Part shown: in pieces, positions 15,224 through 31,552 of the stretch
Layout of the letters: the number at the start of each line of letters is the position of its first letter
Numbering within the stretch: position 1 is the first letter of the stretch
From: a virus
Length of the DNA: 64,000 nucleotides
IMG/VR virus record: IMGVR_UViG_3300003323_000307
Coordinates: 7,669 to 71,668 of that record
Direction: 5' to 3' (one strand)
Made by a program: the position numbers and the translations under genes
The notes under the pieces: model-generated
Database searches by the model: none
What the model saw: only the letters and a program-made list of their open reading frames with translations
What the model was told of the DNA's origin: nothing

Positions 15224-15364
15224 ATTTCACGCTCTCTAAAGGGTTTCTGCACTTCAACCGTATACATTTTCGGTGTGCAGACTTCCTTTAACACTTTACC
15301 GTTTCTCTTCAGGTGTAATGCCGATGTATAGCGGCGAACGGACGCGGCGTGATTGCGTAACCCG

Positions 15365-15438
15365 TGGACCTACGGGGATTCGAACCCCGAACCTACTGCG
15401 TGCAAAACAGTCACTCTTCCAGTTGGAGTTACAGGCCC
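15365..15438 (-). tRNA. tRNA-Ala(UGC)
   Basis: Complete 74-nt cloverleaf: acceptor GGGCCUG/UAGGUCC with G3-U70, D-arm ACUC/GAGU, anticodon loop UUUGCAC, T-arm CGGGG UUCGAAU CCCCG. CCA is not encoded. Confidence 0.92.
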
Positions 15439-18047: not shown

Positions 18048-18487
18048 AGCCTGGACCTTCTGACCCTCTCATTTTGGTTATGGCATTCTCTGCAAGAACG
18101 CCAACCTGTCTTTGCTTTGTAGGTGTTGCTATCAGAATACTTATGACCCTTAGGGCACACTAGCTTAATCTTATTGTAATTCCTATTTCTAGTGTCCCTA
18201 TCGGCTGCGTTATCCTTAGAAGTACCTATTTCCAAGTGGGCAACAGCAATACAGTTCCGGACATCACATTTATGACGAACTACCATATTGTCTGGGATAG
18301 GGCCGTAATGTAATAGATACTGCAACCTGTGAGTAAGATACCTCTTTTTATTTACTTGTATTTGGCCATAGCCATTTTTAAGTTGAGTGCCCCTCCATAG
18401 CCGACAACTTCCTGACTTTATGCTCCTAGAGAATAGCTTCTCTTTAGCTATAGTCTGCTGCTGGGTCGTAAGGTTCAAGGTCTCCAT
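18044..18487 (-). CDS. HNH homing endonuclease
   Basis: GYGQI...THRL..VVRHKCDVRNCIAVAHL; CPKGH..NT..RSCREC tail. Confidence 0.85.
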   Translation of the reverse strand: METLNLTTQQQTIAKEKLFSRSIKSGSCRLWRGTQLKNGYGQIQVNKKRYLTHRLQYLLHYGPIPDNMVVRHKCDVRNCIAVAHLEIGTSKDNAADRDTRNRNYNKIKLVCPKGHKYSDSNTYKAKTGWRSCRECHNQNERVRRSRL

Positions 18488-20390
18488 AAGTCGGTCCCAA
18501 TTCTACGTCCACTGCAAAAGGTGTATCACTCTCAAAAGGGGGGGTTGTCATGGTCTCACACATGTATGCAATGGCCTCGTGGATGAACTCCTTGCGAACA
18601 TTGGCCACCAGTGAGTCATGAACTGACAAGATGATACGCCCCCAGCCCCTCTCTTGCAATCCCCAGTGAACTTTGATCAAGGACGAGAGGCACAGATCAG
18701 AAGCCATGGACTGTCCAGGGAAGTTGACAGCCTGGTTGTTTACCTTGTTGTAGTTGTCCTTGGTGATGAGATTCCAGCGTCGTTTACGGCCAAGCTCAGT
18801 GGTCAGGAAGAACTGACTATGAGCCTGTTCCCGCCATTCGTCACAGCACATTTTCCATGTGGAGTACATGTTCCAGAAGGTGTCAAGGAACTCTTGAGCC
18901 TTGTCAGGGTCCCCACCTGTGGCTGCTTCCATTGCAGGATCAAGGGACAGCTTGAAACCAGAGATACCATAGCCTGCGCCGAAGTTGACTGACTTCACTG
19001 ACTGACGTTCTGTCGGTGTAACCTCTGACGCAGGCTTGTTGTAAACCTCTGCTGCAAGAGCAGTATGGACATCCCATTCCCCTGTGAGGTTTTCCAGAAG
19101 TACTGGGTCCCCTGTAAGGTGATGGGCAATGAACATCTCCAGAGACTTATAGTCAATGTTTACGATGAGATGTTCATCATCGTCTGCCATAAACAGACGC
19201 TTTACCGCTTTAGAGTTTTGGCTATACTTAGGTACAGTTTGCATCGCAGGATCGTGAATCGCAATACGACCTGTTTTCGTACCGAAGAGTAGGAAATTCG
19301 GATGTACTTTCCCGTCTTCAGCCACGAACTTCTGCATTCCCTCCAAGAAGTTTCGACGTAGATACTGTAGTTCTTTGTACTCAGCAACAAGCTTGGCCAG
19401 AGGATGATTACCGTTATATTTCCAAAAATCTTTATTCGTTGTGTTTTTAGGTTCATGTGGCAAACCCTTCATGTTCAGAATATCGTAGCACAAATGCTGC
19501 ATCTGTTCTGAAGAGTTCACATTAAGAGTTACATCAACCTCAGTTCGGTATCGCTTGTCTGAGCAGCGCTCACAAGTATCGAGAGTCGCACCAGATTCTC
19601 TAAGTCGTTTAGCGTACGACAGGACTCGTAGTCCGTCCAGGAGTCCGTGGTGTTCTTCAGGTACGCACTCACAGATGACCTTGTAACGTCGGCCAATTCC
19701 GGAGTCAGGTCGGGGGAATCCCACGGATGCGGCATAATCCTGAACATTCTTGATTGCCTCCTCGATCTTGGGGAGCCATTCGGCTGAAGTGGTACGGGCA
19801 TACTCTACATCACAGCGCATACCCTGGTATTCAATGTCGGCAAAAGCAGCCTGGGCAGGAAGGAGGATCTCCTTGACGGCTTTCCAGGTCCCCTCCTTTG
19901 TGACACGCTTGGACAGCACGGGGAGGAGCCCGTAAGTGTAGAAGACGTCCTTGCAGCCGTATTCAGCCAGAACATCCGGGCGGATATGGCCGAAGTTCCA
20001 CTTCTTCTTGTCCGTGTCCAGCCACTCTTCAAGGCCCTCTTCATAGAACGGGGCGTCGAGGTCCTGGCGGGAGCGGTATTTCAGACCTACCTGGCGGGCC
20101 TTCTCTGTGGTTCCCAGGGCCAGGCACATGGTGTCCACACTGCGTTCATCTACAGAAACACCCAGCCAATGCTTCACCATCTTGGCATCATGTTTAACGT
20201 TATGCCATACAAACCTAGCATTGGGGTGGTTAAGGAGCCGCTGTACTAGAGGCTTCACACGGGGGTCATTGATGACACCCCAGTTGAATGCATACGCAAT
20301 TGCACCGTCGTAGAGCTGCAACATAGTCAGACTGTGGAAGGGGTTTAGGTCAAAAGACTCTGTGTCAGCCGCGAAGATTTTTTCTGGCAT
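18444..20390 (-). CDS. family A DNA polymerase with 3'-5' exonuclease domain
   Basis: ExoI AADTES, HNVKHD, TKTGR, motif A DYKSLE, motif B KSVNFGAGYG, motif C VHDS. Likely start MPEKIF. Confidence 0.93.
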   Translation of the reverse strand: MPEKIFAADTESFDLNPFHSLTMLQLYDGAIAYAFNWGVINDPRVKPLVQRLLNHPNARFVWHNVKHDAKMVKHWLGVSVDERSVDTMCLALGTTEKARQVGLKYRSRQDLDAPFYEEGLEEWLDTDKKKWNFGHIRPDVLAEYGCKDVFYTYGLLPVLSKRVTKEGTWKAVKEILLPAQAAFADIEYQGMRCDVEYARTTSAEWLPKIEEAIKNVQDYAASVGFPRPDSGIGRRYKVICECVPEEHHGLLDGLRVLSYAKRLRESGATLDTCERCSDKRYRTEVDVTLNVNSSEQMQHLCYDILNMKGLPHEPKNTTNKDFWKYNGNHPLAKLVAEYKELQYLRRNFLEGMQKFVAEDGKVHPNFLLFGTKTGRIAIHDPAMQTVPKYSQNSKAVKRLFMADDDEHLIVNIDYKSLEMFIAHHLTGDPVLLENLTGEWDVHTALAAEVYNKPASEVTPTERQSVKSVNFGAGYGISGFKLSLDPAMEAATGGDPDKAQEFLDTFWNMYSTWKMCCDEWREQAHSQFFLTTELGRKRRWNLITKDNYNKVNNQAVNFPGQSMASDLCLSSLIKVHWGLQERGWGRIILSVHDSLVANVRKEFIHEAIAYMCETMTTPPFESDTPFAVDVELGPTYGDLEPYDPAADYS

Positions 20391-20823
20391 ACCAATCCCT
20401 TTGAGCTTTCTTCCTACACTCACTACATCTGCGGTTACGACGAGTCTCAGCTAACTTGTGGATACCCTTTTTGCAGTATTCATATTCTCTACCTGCATTA
20501 GAGGGAGCCCGGCCCCGGGCGTACATATCCTGTAGATTCTCAGCTTGTGTGCCCAGCTCCAAATGACTAGGGTTCACACACGGGGGGTTGTCACAACGGT
20601 GACGGACAACTAGCCCTTCGGGTATATTTCCAAAATGTAGTACCCAAGAAAATCTATGAGCTTGCCATATAAAGCCTCCAGCTCCTCCCTCCGAAATTCG
20701 ACCATACCCTCTACTATTACGACAAGCTAACCATACCCAGCAATCATCCTCACCTTGTATATCTACTTTCTCCCAAAACCTAGCCTCTGTAGGTTTATTC
20801 TGGCTTCCTTTAGGTCTCCCCAT
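20365..20823 (-). CDS. HNH homing endonuclease inserted between the UDG-like and polymerase genes
   Basis: RFWEKV..CWVW..GYG..AHRFSW..VVRHRCDNPPCVNPSHL. Confidence 0.9.
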   Translation of the reverse strand: MGRPKGSQNKPTEARFWEKVDIQGEDDCWVWLACRNSRGYGRISEGGAGGFIWQAHRFSWVLHFGNIPEGLVVRHRCDNPPCVNPSHLELGTQAENLQDMYARGRAPSNAGREYEYCKKGIHKLAETRRNRRCSECRKKAQRDWYARKNLRG

Positions 20824-21469
20824 CTAGCTCCCCCAACCATTGAGAGAAAATCTCTACAGCCCGGTTGACTTCGTCCTCAGTGGCTTCAAAATAGCCCGAC
20901 CAAACTTGAGGATCATCAAGATAACCAGGCTCGCCATTATGGCCCACCCATTCCCATGGAACGTAGTGACCCTCTTTCGGAGGAAATTCACGCTTGCCAT
21001 TGATCAGCTCCCCGACTCGCTGAACGTGGTCGTACAGCACGTCAAATTGGTCATACCGTTTGTTAAGGGTTTCCTTGGGGCCGATGTACACCACAGAGGG
21101 GTGATAGGTCGGCAGAACCCAGGTTTCCAGATCCTCTGACCACGTCAGAGAACCATTGTAATCATCCAGAGTTTTCTTGGTGTTGACGAACTTCTTGAGG
21201 GCGTTGGAACCCAGGAGAACCACTACCTTGTGGTTCCCCTGACGAACCAGCTCATGCAGTTCTTCTATCTGAGCTGCCCTCATGTTCCCTGTGAAGGTGA
21301 GAGAATACTGAGCTACGTTCAGGAACTTGAGGTTGGCGTCTGTAAAGCAGCCGTTGAGAAGCTGTAGAGCCCTGCGGTCGAAACCTTCACCAGCATGATT
21401 GACGTTGGTCCGAATCTCGACCACAGCAACTTCAGAGTTCCGTGGGACCTTCTTGCTCAGCTTGTGCAT
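20810..21469 (-). CDS. uracil-DNA-glycosylase-like domain, probably the N-terminal part of a UDG-PolA fusion
   Basis: VVVLLGSNA and LPTYHPS motifs of the family-4 UDG fold. Confidence 0.65.
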   Translation of the reverse strand: MHKLSKKVPRNSEVAVVEIRTNVNHAGEGFDRRALQLLNGCFTDANLKFLNVAQYSLTFTGNMRAAQIEELHELVRQGNHKVVVLLGSNALKKFVNTKKTLDDYNGSLTWSEDLETWVLPTYHPSVVYIGPKETLNKRYDQFDVLYDHVQRVGELINGKREFPPKEGHYVPWEWVGHNGEPGYLDDPQVWSGYFEATEDEVNRAVEIFSQWLGELDGET

Positions 21470-21815
21470 TGTCCATCTTCCACTTCACAAGCTCCGCGAG
21501 GAGCACATTGAAACAAATAGCCATTGCATGATCTTCTGAGGTATCTCCGCCAAAGTACTGCATCATATGGCGGAACATACTCTCCTTAGCACGGTCCAGC
21601 TCAGCCGGGGAATTCCCCAACTCGAAGTTTCTCTTTGAGTATTTGATACTCCCTCGTGTGAGAAGCTGGGCCAAGCGGGTCAGGAACTGATCTTCATAAG
21701 GGACGCCTTCATGCCACAAGAGCATGAAGTTATCCTTGGTAGCCCCGTCAGCATCTCGGACCATGCCACTCGCGTACTCTTCGCGGGTGCCGGAGTCCTT
21801 GGTCTCGAAAGTCAT
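21432..21815 (-). CDS. dATP/dGTP diphosphohydrolase-like (DUF5664-type) protein
   Basis: TKDSG.REEY.SGMVRD, G..KY..RNF, EDH....FN. Confidence 0.7.
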   Translation of the reverse strand: MTFETKDSGTREEYASGMVRDADGATKDNFMLLWHEGVPYEDQFLTRLAQLLTRGSIKYSKRNFELGNSPAELDRAKESMFRHMMQYFGGDTSEDHAMAICFNVLLAELVKWKMDNAQAEQEGPTEL

Positions 21816-22252
21816 CTTAAATAGTCCAATGCCCTCTTCAAATACTCCGGAGAATCTTGAAATAGCCCTAAAGCTCTATTACAACTTCCACATAGGAGCC
21901 CTCTAACACAGCTACCACATGAAGATATTCCAGAGCAACAACTGTGATCATGATCTATAGTTAGCTCCGTTGAAGCTTGGCATATAGCACAAAGTCCTTG
22001 CTGAGCGGCCACCATCTCTTGATATTTAGCTAAACTTAGTCCGTAGCGTCCAGTTATCAGGTTTCTCTTAAATGCCTCTTTACCCTTAGGACTCTCCCTA
22101 TATCGTTTCGAGCGCTCTCTATCTGCCTCAGCTTTACAGGGACCACAGTACCGTTTTCTGTAAGGTCTTTCCTTACCGCATCTAGGGCAATTAGGGTCTC
22201 TAGGGGGCAACTCTACCGAACTCCGTAAAATAGGCCATGGCTTGTGGTGCAA
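21812..22252 (-). CDS. endonuclease VII-family nuclease (start uncertain)
   Basis: YGLS...QQGLCAIC..IDHDH..VRGLLC..CN..LG. Confidence 0.85.
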   Translation of the reverse strand: MHHKPWPILRSSVELPPRDPNCPRCGKERPYRKRYCGPCKAEADRERSKRYRESPKGKEAFKRNLITGRYGLSLAKYQEMVAAQQGLCAICQASTELTIDHDHSCCSGISSCGSCVRGLLCGSCNRALGLFQDSPEYLKRALDYLR

Positions 22253-22901
22253 CTTCCGATGCCAGGGTATCTATTTGTTTGGCAACTTGCTCTATCTCCC
22301 ATAGAGGAAATGTTGGGGTTTTAGAATTTTCATGAGCCCATCTGAGCGACAAAAAATTCATAAGAGACCTGAGATTAAAGTTTACATAGAATGAGGTGTA
22401 GATGCTAAATGGCAGATGATCCCGGGCGACCTCACGGGCAATGCCATCTTGCAGAGCTTCCTGGTACATAGACCAGCCAAAGAGTGCTGTTCGTTTATGG
22501 CGTTCTTGCTCCCTCTGTATTTGTGAAGGAGTTCCTAGTTCAAACGTGTACGCGCCGGGTTTGCCAATTTGCCGTAGTGGACGCTGGGACCCTGGTACAT
22601 AGAACACCGGCTCAAGTTCGCGGTACCTTCCTGAGGTTTCGTTATATGAGGCGATCCTGTGCCTGAAGAACTCTCGGGCAACGAATATAGGGCAAGAAAC
22701 TTTAAACTGCAACACTGGTGATTCAAATGGAGAGCCATGACGATCTCGCATAAGCATACGTAAGAGGCCATTATTACTAGCTTCTGTACCCGTAGACCCA
22801 GAACTCACACGGGCAAAACGAACTATAGACTCATCTCCACCCATACTGTCAACAAGCTCAACATCCATGTCGGACTTGAACGTCACTTCAGACATGGTCA
22901 C
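22200..22901 (-). CDS. thyX: flavin-dependent thymidylate synthase
   Basis: HGSPFE, signature RHRIASYNETSGRY, NLRSLMNFLSLR, EI. Confidence 0.93.
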   Translation of the reverse strand: MTMSEVTFKSDMDVELVDSMGGDESIVRFARVSSGSTGTEASNNGLLRMLMRDRHGSPFESPVLQFKVSCPIFVAREFFRHRIASYNETSGRYRELEPVFYVPGSQRPLRQIGKPGAYTFELGTPSQIQREQERHKRTALFGWSMYQEALQDGIAREVARDHLPFSIYTSFYVNFNLRSLMNFLSLRWAHENSKTPTFPLWEIEQVAKQIDTLASEVAPQAMAYFTEFGRVAP

Positions 22902-23815: not shown

Positions 23816-24211
23816 CTATTCCCCAGCCCCATGGACATAAGCGAGGCAGTGTGCAAGGGCAGAGATGGCATCGCGCCCCTTACGGTGCATGTCTTTACGT
23901 TCTTCCTTCAGAAGTTCTTCAGCCTGGCTCACAAAGGCTAGCCTGGCCTGTGGAGCTACTACACTACACCCTGCACCATACTTGAACAAGCCCAGAACTT
24001 CAATAGTCTTCTTACCCTCTCGGGACAGGTTCCCCGCACTGTGATAGTTCTCTACTATGAGTTCATCCGGGCGGTATAGCTTAAGCCATACTGTAAAAAT
24101 CCCAAAGGCCGCCTCAGGAAAATCCACCTGATGAACTCTGAAGAACTCTGTATCACTATCGTAATAAGCTACCCCAATAGTTTCCCCGGGGTCTACCGCT
24201 ATGACCCTCAT
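23816..24211 (-). CDS. RuvC-like Holliday junction resolvase
   Basis: MRVIAVDPGETIGVA, IVEN, DA.SA. Confidence 0.7.
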   Translation of the reverse strand: MRVIAVDPGETIGVAYYDSDTEFFRVHQVDFPEAAFGIFTVWLKLYRPDELIVENYHSAGNLSREGKKTIEVLGLFKYGAGCSVVAPQARLAFVSQAEELLKEERKDMHRKGRDAISALAHCLAYVHGAGE

Positions 24212-24424
24212 AGATCCTTGAACCTCTCCCGGACCATGTCTGTAAATACTGTGTCTGCCATGTGCTGATCTATACGTTCGAAGAAGTCTACAATAACTTC
24301 TTTATCAAAACCCGCACCTTTGACTATCTCGTAGGATAGAGTTTCCAGATTTGTCCAAGATGCGACGATATTTGCCTTAAGATTTTCATTCATAAAAGCC
24401 CTAAAATCTATGCTATACTTATAT

Positions 24425-24888
24425 ATTGCCGGAGGAGAACGTGATCTGAAAGCGGCGCCAATTCTGTACTAGTCAGAGGCGGCAATGCGAGTAGGTGATC
24501 TGAAGCCGAAGGAAGCCGTCTGGCGGGAAATTCTTCGTTCGGGGAGGATATTCTTAAGGGCGCTGGTGAACGAAGTAGGTTGCTCCCGAGGCAATCGAAA
24601 AGGAATCCAGGGAATGGGCTAACACTCTAAGTGGAGCCTGAGTAGGACCAAACGGAATGTGAAGCGGGACCCGAAAGGGAAGCTGAACAGAAAACTGAAA
24701 GCTAACCTGAAGGGGAAGCTGAAAGCCGAAAGGTGAGTAAGTGGAACTGGATGGGGAGCAAGTAAGTGGACTAAGTAGGTGGAACAAGTAGGAGAACGTG
24801 GATCTGAACAGATGGACTGAAAGGGTGAAACGGCAGGTGTTAGCCCTGAACCATTTCTGGACCAAAGGCCCCCGCATTGCGGGGGCCT
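24425..24888 (+). ncRNA. candidate large structured ncRNA (alternatively a structured replication origin)
   Basis: Extended -10 TGcTATACT at 24411-24419; long-range helices; many GNRA and short hairpins; terminal hairpin at 24866-24888; no credible ORF. Confidence 0.55.
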
Positions 24889-24896
24889 CAGTCATG

Positions 24897-25349
24897 TCAG
24901 AACTTGTACTCGGTGACTACAGCCTTGACGCCAGTCCAGTTGTCTTCGTCATCCGGGTCATCTTCCTTGCGGGCATAACGCTCCACCTCGGTGACAGCTA
25001 GGCCCTCCAGACCTTCGAAGAGTTCCGTAAGGTCAGCAGCGTATTCGGCTAGGGAGTCATACTCCGTGTCCTTTTCCGGAAGTTCGACCCCAGCGGAGTC
25101 AGCGAACTTCTTCAGACGCCATGCTGCCTTCTCGGAGAGCCAGAAGGAATCACCGTAGAGGTTACGCTTATACGGCTCCCCATCGATGTCCACGGCATCC
25201 TCGTCCGTGACCTTCCAGACAGGTTGGACATAGGGGGTCTTCTTGACGGTAGACTCACCTGAGGCAAACTTGACGAATCGGACTTCCCACTGACCCGCTG
25301 CTAGCGGCTGCTGAGTGGAACCTGACAGGTCTGGGACAACAAACCCCAT
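24897..25349 (-). CDS. ssDNA-binding protein (DUF669-like)
   Basis: Acidic, OB-fold-like sequence; FWLSEKAAWRLKKF; follows the AAA ATPase. Confidence 0.65.
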   Translation of the reverse strand: MGFVVPDLSGSTQQPLAAGQWEVRFVKFASGESTVKKTPYVQPVWKVTDEDAVDIDGEPYKRNLYGDSFWLSEKAAWRLKKFADSAGVELPEKDTEYDSLAEYAADLTELFEGLEGLAVTEVERYARKEDDPDDEDNWTGVKAVVTEYKF

Positions 25350-27465: not shown

Positions 27466-27852
27466 TCAAGGGCACACAACTCGGGTTATCCCGCTTTCTT
27501 CAATGAACCGGCTGCAATCCGAGCACGGGGCGAATGTCACATAAATGGTGCAGTCTTCTACTCTCATCCCCCTCCGATGTGCGTCGATGATTGCGTTCAC
27601 TTCTGCATGGAAACCCTTGCAGTTGCTGTACGAACCATAAGCAGGAAGTTCATCATATGTCAAGGCCCCCCGAGGACAACCACCATCCGAACAGTTCACC
27701 TCACCCGCTTGAGTGCCGTTATACCCAAGCGAAATGACATGGTGGGTCTCATCCATGATGCACGCGCCTACTTGACGCCTTCGGCAAGCAGCACGGAGCT
27801 TGGCTGTCTCAGCCATAGCCAAGCCATACTGGTCCCATGAGAGACGGCTCAC
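27466..27852 (-). CDS. dCMP deaminase
   Basis: CRRRQVGA, GYNG, HAEVNA, PCSDC. Confidence 0.9.
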   Translation of the reverse strand: MSRLSWDQYGLAMAETAKLRAACRRRQVGACIMDETHHVISLGYNGTQAGEVNCSDGGCPRGALTYDELPAYGSYSNCKGFHAEVNAIIDAHRRGMRVEDCTIYVTFAPCSDCSRFIEESGITRVVCP

Positions 27853-28311: not shown

Positions 28312-29687
28312 TCATTCGTCCCTCGCCCACTTGGCCATAGCTTCCGCAATACCGGAGAAACGGCCATCCAGGACTTGCTTGATGGCCATGTCTACTGACC
28401 CTTTGGCTCGGACGTGGTGCACCTGCACGACGCGTCCTTGCCCCCTCCTGCACACCCGTTTAATGGTTTGCTCGATATCGGCAGGTAGTTCGGAGTGTTC
28501 GAGGAAGACGACGTCTGTAGCTTCTGTGAGGCTGATGCCTTCTTTGAGGCTTGGGATGGTCGCGACAAGAACTTGCGGACCATCACTAGCTCGCCATTCT
28601 GCAATGACAGATTCACGCCTTCCTGGGAGAACGGAACCTGTGACAAGTACCGCTTGGCTGCCCAGAGCATCAGCGATCGCGCCAGCCGAATCTTTATACC
28701 ATACGTAAACCACCACTTTAGATCGGCGATCTGTGAGGAAATCTTTGAGCCAATCGATTTTCGGGTTAGCTTTCGTAGGCGGTACAGTCGCAATCTGACG
28801 CTGTTTGACATAGAGAGCACCAGAGCCTTTGAGAAATTCAGTATGTGCCAGATCTTCATGCTCCAGTACATAATCCTTCTTCGCTTTCTTGATCATCTTG
28901 ACTACCGAGGCAGGCAGCTCCACCTGGTATTCATGCTCCTGATATTCCAGGCTGGCTAGCTGCGGGATCTCAGCCACCGTACGACGCATGCTGAACTGGG
29001 CAAGCTCTTGCTTGAACTGCTCTACGTAGTCTTTGCGTATGTTGCCGACTGTGGTTGACCAGGGATTTGTATAGACCACACACCGGTCGTTGACAAATTT
29101 CCAGTACGAGGAGTATTTCTTTTTATCGTAAAGATGAAAATACGGGAAGAAGTCTCCGCCATCACGCACAAACGGGGTACCCGTAAGAACCCAGATGGGT
29201 GTTTCCCGGTTACTACTAGCAGATAGTCTCGTTTTAAAGGTATGCTTCGTCCACGCAGAATTACGGCCACGGAGTCTGTGCCCCTCATCGAAGATGTACG
29301 CTGACCACTTACGGCCTACAAGTAGTCCCCCGTACGTATAGTCTCGACCTTTTTTCGCCGCCCAGTTGTGGTAAGACGTGAGTATGAAATCCGCGTTGCT
29401 CGAAAGTGCTTCGCTACGAAGTTCAGTACCGGATCCGTCAGCCGATACCACAGTGGCATCCGGGCAGAAGGCATTGATCTCCTTTACGGTATTAGGTATA
29501 AGGTACGCTGGGCATGTCCATAGAACTGGGTTTCCAGTCCTCTGGATAAGTTCCCAACCTGCCATAATACTAGGTCCAGTTTTCCCAACTAAACTCCGGG
29601 CTCATCAAAAAGCCCGGCAAACCTCCCTGAGTTAAGTAGGAAGTCTCTAGACTCTACCTGGTAGTCATCCAGAATTTTTTCTGGCAT
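28312..29687 (-). CDS. SNF2-family helicase with Walker A interrupted by a stop and frame change at 29587-29594
   Basis: 5' piece MPEKILDDYQ...FDEPGV* (29687-29589); 3' frame GKT..., DEGH, LTGTP, EGISL, Q...RVCRRGQ. Confidence 0.85.
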
Positions 29688-30111
29688 AGTAGTTTCTCCA
29701 AGCCTCATTTTTGCAGATACGACATTGAGTATACCCATCAGCTCTTGGAGTACTATTTGCTTTGGTGAGAAGGTGGCCCTTTAGACACCGGAATCTTCGG
29801 GGTCTACGTTGGCAATTTTCCTTTGGGGTTACCAAGTCTAAGTGTCTCGGGTTTACACAGTCCCTATATCTACATTTGTGATCCAATTGCATATTATTAG
29901 GCTTGGGTCCATTAAATTGTTCCCAAGAAAATACGTGAGCCTTAACCGATTTCCTGTGATGTACTGCAAAAACTCCATAACCTTGTTGCACTGACCCTAA
30001 CCAGTGCCAACAGCCTTCAGTCTTCTGGACTTTACTCCAGAATCTATCTACAGGGTCGGTTAATATAAATCTACCTGAACCATCCCTTGTTGTCACTGAC
30101 CCTTCTTCCAT
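29665..30111 (-). CDS. HNH homing endonuclease
   Basis: RFWSKV..CWHW..GYG..LDHKC...CVNPRHL; CLKGH..CRIC. Confidence 0.9.
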   Translation of the reverse strand: MEEGSVTTRDGSGRFILTDPVDRFWSKVQKTEGCWHWLGSVQQGYGVFAVHHRKSVKAHVFSWEQFNGPKPNNMQLDHKCRYRDCVNPRHLDLVTPKENCQRRPRRFRCLKGHLLTKANSTPRADGYTQCRICKNEAWRNYYARKNSG

Positions 30112-30389
30112 CGGACTATCTTCACCAGGTAGGAGGGAGAGCCACAGGTTTTACATACCGCAGAATCTTTGTCGAAAATACCCTCTCCATAAGCTTCTCG
30201 AAGAGCGTTTCCATCCGCCTCGCAGAAGTACCAGTCCGCAGGCCAGCATTCGCACGACCAGTTATAGGTGGCTTTCCAAGTAGCTTCCTTGTCACACCCA
30301 CCAATAGCCATGCACGGTTCGGCCTCATCCTCCGAGAACTCCACCCAGGTTAGGTCCAGAGGATTTGTTGTGTGAGTAGGGGTAGTCAC
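30093..30389 (-). CDS. hypothetical Cys-rich protein
   Basis: GTGA-coupled ORF. Confidence 0.5.
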   Translation of the reverse strand: MTTPTHTTNPLDLTWVEFSEDEAEPCMAIGGCDKEATWKATYNWSCECWPADWYFCEADGNALREAYGEGIFDKDSAVCKTCGSPSYLVKIVRWKKGQ

Positions 30390-31459
30390 TTGTTCTTCTG
30401 CCTCTCTACATAGCGCCGCTGGTTTTCACGTCGGCAGACCTTGCACCGGAGAGCCCCGTCAAGGCCCACCTTCTCCTTCAGATGACCCTTAGGGCAATGT
30501 GTGGTGGGCTTACGTCCACCCTTACGGGCATGGCCTGTCTTCTTACGTTCGTTGACTCCCTGTGCGGCAGCAGACTTGCAAGTGCTGCATGACCGGTACC
30601 AGTACCCACCTTCACGACGAGCTACTACCGTATTTTCCGGGGTCCGCTCATGGTTCTTGGTGCAAGTACCATGGTAAGGATCCACCACAATGTGAGCCTG
30701 GTTCACAGCGCGCTGGATCATCATATTGCCATGGGCAGATGGATGGTCCGTGTTCCCGTAGTGGCGCCCGATATCCGTGGGGGAGTAACCCTCTGCAAAA
30801 TACATATACAGCACTGTACGGTGCTGTTCTGTGAGCTGGGAGAGGACTTCCTTGAAGTGCTGGTCTTCTACAAAGAGGTCTTCAAAGGACTCCCGGAGTT
30901 CCAGTTTGGGGTTGTCCGACCAATGGCGGTTACTGGACTCCACCCCCGCCTCTGAGTAAGTCATCAGCTCCAGTGACATGGTCGAATAGTGGTTCCAGTC
31001 CATACGCCCGTCCGGGCGGTAGACCATGTGATCCACCCGGCCTTCCCGGATGTCCTTGAGGATCTTCTGAGCACTGGAGTGATTGATACCCAGAGCATCC
31101 GAGACTGTCTTAGGAGTCGGCCAGACACCTTCACGGAGACCCTTGGTCTCTTCCAGATAAGCCTTGACCTTCTCCACGGTTGCCTGGTTTGTCCGAAGCC
31201 CGTCCCGGGACTTCTTGGGCTTACCGAAGGAGTATTCACCGTTCCTGTGAAGATACTTTTCGGCTGACATCTTGGCCCGACGGAGAACCTTGAGCTTGGG
31301 GGTTACCCCTGCCTGCACATCCCGCCAAGCCTGAATAAGGCCCTCCTGGAATGCGTCGTTGTACATCTCCGGTAGATGCTTGCGCCACTTAGCCAAGGAT
31401 ACCGTGAGGTAGGATACTACCTCATTGTGAATTTCGTCGTACGTTGTGTAATCACTCAT
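30386..31459 (-). CDS. RNA polymerase sigma-factor-like protein with two C-terminal Zn-finger modules
   Basis: Region 2-like DAFQEGLIQAW; region 3-like WPTPKTVSDALGI; region 4-like LSQLTEQHRTVLYMYFAEGYSPTDIG; start MSDYTT after a GGAGG RBS. Confidence 0.75.
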   Translation of the reverse strand: MSDYTTYDEIHNEVVSYLTVSLAKWRKHLPEMYNDAFQEGLIQAWRDVQAGVTPKLKVLRRAKMSAEKYLHRNGEYSFGKPKKSRDGLRTNQATVEKVKAYLEETKGLREGVWPTPKTVSDALGINHSSAQKILKDIREGRVDHMVYRPDGRMDWNHYSTMSLELMTYSEAGVESSNRHWSDNPKLELRESFEDLFVEDQHFKEVLSQLTEQHRTVLYMYFAEGYSPTDIGRHYGNTDHPSAHGNMMIQRAVNQAHIVVDPYHGTCTKNHERTPENTVVARREGGYWYRSCSTCKSAAAQGVNERKKTGHARKGGRKPTTHCPKGHLKEKVGLDGALRCKVCRRENQRRYVERQKNK

Positions 31460-31510
31460 ATTGCCCTCCAACACGAGTGTGCCCAGGCTAACACCTGGGC
31501 AAACATAAGA

Positions 31511-31552
31511 CAATCCCCCTGTCAGGACTTGAGTCAACCGACAGGGGGATTG
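31511..31552. terminator. hairpin (terminator or regulatory site) upstream of the sigma gene
   Basis: CAATCCCCCTGTC...GACAGGGGGATTG inverted repeat. Confidence 0.5.

Follow-up and report, generated by a model that had tools for sequence, protein, structure and literature searches.

The 64,000-nucleotide (nt) stretch of DNA analyzed here (hereafter the window) comprises bases 7669–71668 of the linear 71.7-kb IMG/VR virus record IMGVR_UViG_3300003323_000307, which is estimated to be 85% complete. Between two minus-strand recombination genes lies a gap of 503 nt (24394–24896), the largest non-coding stretch of the record, which very probably harbors a real structured RNA encoded on the plus strand. 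The explanation that we favor, and consider reasonably probable from the sequence comparisons, is that positions 24425–24895 form an independent gene, whose product is a structured non-coding RNA of ~470 nt that belongs to an undescribed family and likely acts in trans. A large structured plus-strand RNA antisense to the operon was the central claim of a first-pass annotation of the window, and it is supported by covariation between homologs, the asymmetry of G-U pairs, a -10 box and a terminator. We therefore describe the element as a candidate new family of large structured phage RNA, which appears real and unusually clear on a small evidence base of three to five sequences.

Homologs were identified through P0002, the gene that converges on the element. 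This protein has 19 relatives with 52–65% identity in the protein collection, and a metagenome scan with their alignment retrieved 20 loci, eight of which (L003–L010) carry close P0002 homologs (50–61% identity). In two of these, L007 and L010, the sequence stops short of the downstream region, and they hence fall outside the presence/absence count. Among the six readable loci, the element is located at the same place downstream of the P0002 homolog in four and is cleanly absent from two. The gap has a full-length counterpart in L005 (270 nt with 77% and 91 nt with 78% identity), the homolog in L006 has its 5′ end cut by the end of the contig, and the 3′ part is present in L008 and L004. In L003 and L009, which lack the element, a terminator hairpin follows the P0002 homolog and the next start codon comes within ~10–30 nt. 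Collection of homologs had been proposed as a check of the first-pass claim, and it yielded related elements with compensatory changes. Mean column identity is 86% in the core (~24425–24617) and the 5′ domain is 77% identical to L005, compared with 64–68% for most of the flanking coding DNA.

Public-run sequences, all of which are DNA-type contigs, added further relatives; for runs X2–X4, just the covered parts were interpreted. The X1 contig matches 24431–24968 with 98% identity and nine other letters, the X2 contig matches the core from 24441 to 24616 with six other letters, and the X3 contig matches 24500–24616 with one. The contigs of X2 and X3 (97–99% identity) diverge exactly where the long-range helix described below starts (24616). 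Over 24256–24430 (175 nt, covering the 5′ part of a neighboring 61-amino-acid (aa) gene and the RNA promoter), the X1 contig has the same length and is diverged (<80% identical). This similarity break marks a recombination boundary at ~24431, and its position fits the predicted transcript start near 24426. The number of independent lineages is ~3–4, namely the window with X1, L005 with L004 and L008, L006, and perhaps X2/X3. All sources of the element are uncultured soil, root and groundwater phages that have no cultured relative.

The element and its predicted parts are as follows.

24411–24419, plus strand: extended -10 element TGcTATACT, with a predicted start near 24426.
24425–24895, plus strand: candidate non-coding transcript of ~470 nt, its bounds inferred from promoter, terminator and extent of conservation.
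24425–24431 with 24480–24486, plus strand: helix P1, seven pairs, of which two carry two-sided changes in L005 (A-U to C-G and C-G to U-A).
24452–24459 with 24481–24488, plus strand: alternative to P1, mutually exclusive with it, six pairs with three two-sided changes in three sequences.
24462–24478, plus strand: hairpin H2, with the palindromic loop UACUAGU and four of six pairs changed on both sides.
24490–24510, plus strand: AGUA, a short hairpin with the loop GAUCUGAA, and GAA (tentative helix).
24517–24562, plus strand: long hairpin H5, five of 16 pairs changed on both sides, 97–100% of cells paired.
Within 24563–24610, plus strand: helix H6 (CUGG/CCAG), which closes an internal loop and is invariant, so that it gives no covariation signal.
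24578–24584 with 24590–24596, plus strand: hairpin H7, loop CCCGA, four of seven pairs changed on both sides.
24605–24617, plus strand: invariant block AUCCAGGGAAUGG at the junction of core and long-range helix, identical in the window, L005 and L006.
24616–24626, plus strand: 5′ arm of the long-range helix, pairing with 24836–24846.
24627–24835, plus strand: central purine-rich domain, lineage-specific, with degenerate 12–13-nt repeats that carry CUGAA.
24725–24734, plus strand: GCC-GAAA-GGU tetraloop hairpin, an identical 10-mer in the window, L005 and L006.
24836–24846, plus strand: 3′ arm of the long-range helix; the arms of L008 and L004 differ from that of L005 only at positions where pairing would be preserved.
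24845–24854, plus strand: conserved CCUGAACCAU, a 3′ bulge plus CCAU facing AUGG, kept in all five sequences (as CUUGAACCAU in L008).
24866–24888, no strand assigned: GC-rich hairpin, putative two-way intrinsic terminator, an 11-bp perfect inverted repeat (I4).

On direct reading, every sequence feature listed in the first-pass annotation was found where it had been placed. These include the -10 element TGCTATACT (TGcTATACT, 24411–24419), the 5′ helix formed by ATTGCCG (24425–24431) opposite CGGCAAT (24480–24486), the GC hairpin that ends the region (24866–24888, I4), and the long-range pairing of GGGCTAACAC (24616–24625) with GTGTTAGCCC (24837–24846), two arms that make up a perfect inverted repeat of 10 nt (I6), or a helix of 11 bp when a U-G pair is counted. 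A perfect 10-nt repeat with its arms 211 nt apart is, by our own estimate, mildly unusual per 500 nt, and the case therefore rests on the comparison of homologs.

The 5′ domain was aligned across the window, L005 and L006 (alignment A5; six helices, 40 pairs and 113 cells). In this alignment, 94.7% of the cells are paired, whereas 43.8–50.4% are paired when the 3′ partners are slid by 1–3 columns, and 15 of the 40 pairs have changed on both sides compared with 1–3 after sliding. None of 500 shuffles reached any of the five measures, in a control that ignores relatedness. Since L006 is cut off at P1, the covariation of P1 rests on L005, and P1 and the alternative pairing of its 3′ arm score equally well. 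The outer and middle parts of H5 covary, and its inner stem (AUUCUUC/GGAGGAU) and loop (GUUCGG) are invariant. The stem of H7 reads UUGC/GCAA, AUGC/GCAU and CCCC/GGGG across the homologs. At 24490–24510, all three sequences retain AGUA, the loop GAUCUG(A/C)A and GA(A/G) around a 3-bp stem (GGU/GCC, AGC/GCU or GG(A)/(G)CC); this helix is tentative because its register shifts by one base between homologs.

Several unpaired positions are conserved too. H7 is flanked in all three sequences by AGUA (24574–24577) and GAA (24597–24599), with the innermost flanking pair mismatched in two of them, an arrangement whose sequence would fit a loop-E or sarcin-ricin motif. The invariant loops of H5 and H7 contain complementary tetranucleotides, UCGG (within 24537–24542) and CCGA (within 24585–24589), that could kiss; this contact is inferred only, because neither loop varies. 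The loop of H2 is palindromic in every sequence, with ACUAGU shared by the window and L005 and GCUAGC found in L006. Such conservation of unpaired nucleotides within an invariant core suggests that the RNA adopts a defined three-dimensional fold.

The G-U pairs had been said to favor the plus strand, and counts in the alignment agree with this. G-U accounts for 23 of the 113 helix cells, and the helices are 77% paired on the opposite strand versus 94.7% on the plus strand; three invariant U-G pairs in H5 are mismatches on the minus strand. These counts bear on the proposal that the element functions as a single-stranded DNA structure, either a primosome-assembly or single-strand initiation signal or a set of iterons bound by an initiator. 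Covariation alone cannot separate RNA from single-stranded DNA, an SSB-like gene adjoins the element, and four CTGAA copies stand at an exact 12-nt spacing in the window. The proportion of G-U (or G-T) cells nevertheless suits RNA better, the unit is framed by a promoter and a terminator and is absent from two relatives, and, contrary to an iteron origin, lineages differ in repeat number, repeat sequence and spacing. A DNA structure is thus a very improbable account of the element, and a structured RNA is the reading followed below.

The long-range helix has 11 bp in both the window and L005 and 9 bp in L006, with seven covarying positions and a span of 231–290 nt, and a natural variant in X1 (A24622G) keeps a G-U pair with U24840. 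The extension of this helix by UCCAG and CUGGA that the first-pass annotation had described exists in the window alone, as UCCAG is invariant and its partner is not retained in L005, L006, L008 and L004; UCCAG could pair instead with the invariant CUGG at 24563–24566. Five small hairpins proposed for the enclosed domain (CCCGAAAGGG, GCCGAAAGGT, CAGAAAACTG, CCTGAGTAGG and ATCTGAACAGAT) are present in the window, but just the GCC-GAAA-GGU hairpin is kept in all three full homologs, and its GAAA tetraloop may dock. Similarly, the repeat GGAGAACGTG(G)ATCTGAA occurs at 24434–24450 and 24791–24808 as reported, but this 17/18-nt repeat is weakly kept in the homologs. Seven AGUA motifs are indeed present, compared with 1.5 in dinucleotide shuffles (0 of 500 reach seven), of which three sites are conserved.

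The central domain is the most variable part of the element, and its middle is unalignable between lineages; 24627–24671 is common to the window and L005 only, and 24796–24836 is common to the window, L005, L008 and L004. Its purine fraction is 0.70 in the window, 0.59 in L005 and 0.64 in L006. The repeat families of the window (D1, D2 and D4) have spacings of 12, 13, 24 and 36 nt. The four CTGAA exactly 12 nt apart occur in the window only, L005 contains CTGAT/TGAT at ~6–11 nt, and L006 has neither arrangement. CUGAA was observed nine times in the window element versus 1.4 expected (0 of 500 dinucleotide shuffles reach this number), and CUGA is present 10, 10 and seven times in the window, L005 and L006 versus 3.1–4.2 expected (reached by 0, 0 and 7 of 500 shuffles, respectively); UGAU motifs are likewise enriched. 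The repeat domain seemingly expands and changes by slippage and keeps a short purine motif, which suggests multivalent presentation or a flexible linker.

The element is also the most strand-asymmetric stretch of the record, with GC skew up to +0.41 and AT skew up to +0.47. The 200 nt at 24633–24832 consist of 73.5% purines, the maximum of the 71.7-kb record, and the four highest 200-nt windows are all located in the element. Such composition would be expected if a purine-rich plus-strand RNA formed an R-loop that primes or activates replication by the phage family-A polymerase, since G- and purine-rich RNA favors RNA-DNA hybrids. We take the element to resemble ColE1 RNA II and T4 R-loop transcripts in being folded, G-rich, ~0.5 kb long and located in the replication region of a replicon with a family-A polymerase. 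It occupies the genome's largest non-coding gap within a replication/recombination module (RepB-like primase, SNF2, PD-(D/E)XK, Sak4, SSB-like, resolvase-like and PolA genes), and its size is near that of RNA II, which is folded too. Unlike ColE1 RNA II, however, the element ends at a terminator (a hairpin at the 3′ end in all five sequences, with no run into an origin), has no RNA I-like antisense partner and is dispensable in related phages, being missing from two of the six readable loci (L003 and L009) that share the flanking genes. The cumulative skew minimum lies elsewhere, at ~43.9 kb of the window, the clustering of GATC that might have indicated Dam sites is not a significant enrichment, and the near-invariant loops and many covarying helices exceed the needs of hybrid formation. 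An origin transcript is accordingly an improbable explanation, and the origin or single-stranded DNA alternative mentioned in the first-pass annotation is weakened by the same clean absence in two relatives and position of the skew minimum.

Transcription signals at both ends are consistent with an independent RNA gene. L005, the sole homolog that reaches the promoter, has TGaTATACT at the homologous place; TGNTATAMT occurs four times on both strands of the 64-kb window and is not significant alone (12 of 100 shuffles reach this number). At the 3′ end, the terminator hairpin is shared with the convergent gene 24897–25349, and a covarying, GC-rich hairpin with different stems is present in all five sequences. 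It is preceded by an A-rich run in five of five and followed by a U-rich plus-strand run in four of five, an arrangement that could terminate transcription of the RNA as well as of the convergent operon. L003 and L009, both of which lack the RNA element, have the hairpin too. Two irregularities were noted at this junction. In L008 (1183–1470, plus strand), an extra ORF (open reading frame) of ~83 aa separates the P0002 homolog from the shared terminator, which represents mosaic gene content, and in L006 (1004–1115, minus strand) there are ~55 extra nt between the conserved CCUGAACCAU and the terminator hairpin.

The convergent arrangement raises the possibility of a cis-acting antisense RNA or insulator, in which convergent transcription and pairing to read-through mRNA would lower or uncouple expression of the genes downstream of P0002. 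The RNA converges with the operon on a common two-way terminator, the L003 hairpin is located ~10 nt before the next start codon so that read-through seems to be needed, and the RNA promoter is close to gene starts, at 21 nt from that of the 61-aa gene and, in L005, ~15–20 nt from that of the next gene. Such a function requires no conserved intramolecular structure, though, and the insert would create its own target, whereas the compensatory changes and the G-U asymmetry show selection on the plus-strand fold. We regard cis regulation as quite improbable, marginally more so than an origin transcript.

Protein coding is the least credible alternative and can be considered extremely unlikely. 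A 45-aa ORF (24485–24622, plus strand) and a 113-aa ORF (24554–24895, minus strand) do exist in the window, and short local peptide matches between homologs reach E values of 1e-6. These matches span 16–31 residues and only cover nucleotide-conserved blocks, with different starts, stops and frames. In L005 the start codon is missing and 1 nt is deleted, in L006 1 nt is inserted and minus-strand ORFs do not exceed 49 aa, and because of these indels the conserved blocks stand in different frames. Among ORFs of ≥20 aa on both strands of the three homologs, none is shared in frame and extent, and searches against Pfam and PHROG gave no match. The 113-aa ORF on the minus strand is explained by the lack of stop codons in a pyrimidine-rich sequence.

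A non-coding, trans-acting structured RNA was then compared with known families. Rfam, whose use had been suggested with the first-pass claim, gave no family for the element at gathering thresholds in a search of the whole window, and at E ≤ 10 no family was accepted on 24100–25200 or on L004, L005, L006 and L008. GOLLD (RF01998) and ROOL (RF03087) gave no match even at E ≤ 10 in the window region and the four homologous loci. The lack of an Rfam match indicates that the element is not a member of GOLLD, ROOL or another curated family, and the first-pass description of an RNA "of the GOLLD/ROOL kind" can be upheld only as an analogy, in size and phage origin, and not as a model match. According to the available part of a recent study (PMC12286853), GOLLD and ROOL form RNA-only cages that are held by kissing loops and have disordered linkers, in GOLLD a variable 5′ region precedes a conserved 3′ region, the symmetric kissing loops of both families covary between palindromes, and both are frequently located beside tRNA genes in phages and prophages.

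Like GOLLD and ROOL, the element is a large, elaborately folded phage RNA without known protein partner, it has a conserved and a less conserved part, and the palindromic loop of H2 switches between ACUAGU and GCUAGC. This switch is suggestive of kissing, but would be accounted for just as well by a closing pair on a CUAG tetraloop. GAUC in a conserved loop provides a second hint of oligomers, which an intramolecular explanation also fits. Unlike GOLLD and ROOL, the element is shorter (~470–540 nt), lies antisense inside a recombination module and is not located by a tRNA; the only tRNA of the window, a tRNA-Ala(UGC) at 15364–15438 (minus strand) that is also the sole Rfam/ARAGORN match of the window, is ~9 kb away.

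The many short purine motifs, the own promoter and terminator and the lineage-variable copy number and arrangement of the motifs are shared with the CsrB/RsmY/RsmZ sponges. In contrast to these, the recurring motif is CUGA(A/U) rather than GGA, and the sponges have no large invariant core. GGA (the CsrA-type motif) is not enriched, with observed versus expected numbers of 23 versus 17.6 in the window, 13 versus 16.4 in L005 and 18 versus 18.7 in L006, which were reached by 20 (a mild excess), 460 and 336 of 500 shuffles, respectively. The RsmY model scored 14.3 bits against a threshold of 57 bits, and this match, its only one, lies on the opposite strand, ends on the terminator and is otherwise inside gene 24897–25349. 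Box C/D small RNAs were rejected, since they gave sub-threshold scores only (sR52, 13.1 bits versus 50 in the window; v-snoRNA-1, 21.7 versus 75 in L005). A catalog of candidate structured RNAs from IMG/VR (PMC10690425, as far as the available part of the paper goes) lists candidates of 29–151 nt, each found in at least three IMG/VR regions, from phage intergenic regions. Our element is likewise a comparative-genomics candidate from a phage intergenic region; at ~470 nt it is set apart by description from what that part contains, and a listed candidate could still be a short fragment of this RNA.

Searches beyond the metagenome loci were negative. No DNA match to the element was found in cultured phages, and P0002 likewise has no relative there. 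Protein-guided scans of IMG/VR with P0002, Sak4 and an alignment of the P0002 family (A1) retrieved no relative of the neighboring genes, and three DNA patterns from the invariant core retrieved no other copy of the core from IMG/VR. BLAST and a covariance model of the core (R1) found nothing in the 12 loci with distant P0002 relatives, and R1 recovered just its three training sequences from 22 sources (139 kb) that include these 12 loci. One pattern match in genome contigs (L023) was rejected as a chance match, because it is unalignable, inside a 200-aa ORF and R1-negative at E ≤ 10.

A number of observations weigh against the interpretation as a trans-acting structured RNA. The ~3–4 alignable independent lineages are too few for an R-scape-type statistic. 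Folding energy is ordinary, with z scores of -1.6 (plus strand) and -2.2 (minus strand) for the whole element; in the window, L005 and L006, those of the core are +0.48, +1.34 and 0.00, and those of the central domain are -1.71, -1.94 and -3.12. One coding segment of Sak4 reaches 76% identity to L006 and is thus as conserved as the RNA core, and the predicted fold shows no compensation among the five X1 variants in the central domain. For the promoter, no -35 match was found, and the -10 box is confirmed in one other sequence. At the other end, the plus-strand tail of the window itself is U-poor, and a simple terminator scan did not call the hairpin. The L003 hairpin stands directly before the next gene, so that minus-strand transcripts probably read through, and the element may also exist as an antisense RNA through such read-through. 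An L7Ae-type protein, the partner of K-turns, is absent from the phage record.

Considering these points together with the covariation, we propose the following working model for a trans-acting RNA. Host RNA polymerase would start at the extended -10 box and stop at the two-way terminator. The transcript would fold into a near-invariant core of ~190 nt, with the long hairpin, the hairpin flanked by the loop-E-like AGUA/GAA and the two invariant loops, and the long-range helix would close a purine-rich domain with one GAAA hairpin and lineage-specific CUGA(A/U) arrays. The RNA would then most likely act in trans as a folded particle, in which the rigid core gives stability and identity, and the repeat domain either displays a short purine motif in many copies for binding by a protein, as a decoy or scaffold, or serves as a flexible linker. 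Multivalent binding of this kind, which includes the protein decoy suggested in the first-pass annotation, is a tentative proposal. By analogy to the ROOL and GOLLD cages, the element could also be the founding member of an "ornate" class of phage RNA that forms an RNA-only assembly, in which dimers or larger particles arise through palindromic loops (H2 and GAUC), the invariant core makes the shell contacts and the CUGA-repeat domain is a flexible linker for cargo or protein binding; we consider this unlikely.

Related phages either have the complete set of promoter, body and shared terminator between the same two genes or lack it altogether. Accessory units of this type are known in phages as "morons," and the element resembles such an insert in its behavior. 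Gain and loss as a unit between similar phages is the pattern expected of accessory genes for host takeover or counter-defence. Few large, intricately folded bacterial or phage RNAs of unknown function have been described (GOLLD, ROOL, OLE and raiA), and each class opened new questions of structure and function. The element would add a modular plan, in which an invariant core is followed by a helix-closed domain of variable repeats, with a promoter and a terminator of its own. With a length of ~470 nt and well-defined boundaries, it is directly usable for structure probing, cryo-electron microscopy and pull-downs.

Structural genes on the plus strand are present at both ends of the record, and the middle is occupied by a long minus-strand block of early and replication genes that includes the following.

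18444–20423: PolA, in the replication module near the gap.
23816–24211: resolvase-like protein.
24208–24393, minus strand: 61-aa ORF, divergent neighbor, with its start codon 21 nt from the -10 box of the RNA.
24897–25349, minus strand: P0002, convergent neighbor, 150 aa, an OB-fold SSB-like protein that follows the Sak4-like gene.
Module genes around the gap: two HNH endonucleases, a UDG-like protein, a MazZ-like domain protein, endonuclease VII, ThyX and a SprT-like protein.
Further module genes: Sak4-like AAA_24 protein, PD-(D/E)XK nuclease, dCMP deaminase, SNF2 helicase and RepB-like primase.

The best match of PolA among cultured phages has 29% identity, and family searches with the 61-aa ORF gave no match. 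P0002 has no match in Pfam or PHROG. Its predicted model (pLDDT 76) has three chains of PrgE from plasmid pCF10, an OB-fold protein, as the top solved folds (E values of 1e-4 to 7e-4, TM scores of 0.46–0.55), followed by SSB and PriB chains (E > 0.1), and the label "SSB-like" derived from the model seems reasonable, if weakly based. Together with ~20 metagenome relatives, P0002 represents an unannotated OB-fold family that occupies the usual position of SSB after Sak4.

The MazZ-like protein (21432–21815, minus strand) contains the N-terminal domain of dATP/dGTP diphosphohydrolase (PF18909, E value 3.6e-8), and its gene is located near those of ThyX and dCMP deaminase (grouped coordinates 22200–22901 and 27466–27852, both minus strand). 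This combination hints at altered nucleotide pools or modified DNA; a PurZ/adenylosuccinate-synthetase homolog, which was searched for because of the MazZ-like domain, is absent from the phage record. Two genes encoding HNH_3 endonucleases are present in the replication module (20365–20823 and 29665–30111, both minus strand), one of them directly after PolA, and both are likely homing endonucleases. A 383-aa protein (30386–31537, minus strand) shows a weak match to sigma-70 region 4 (E value 1.2e-4, under the Pfam cut-off) and may be a phage sigma-like factor.

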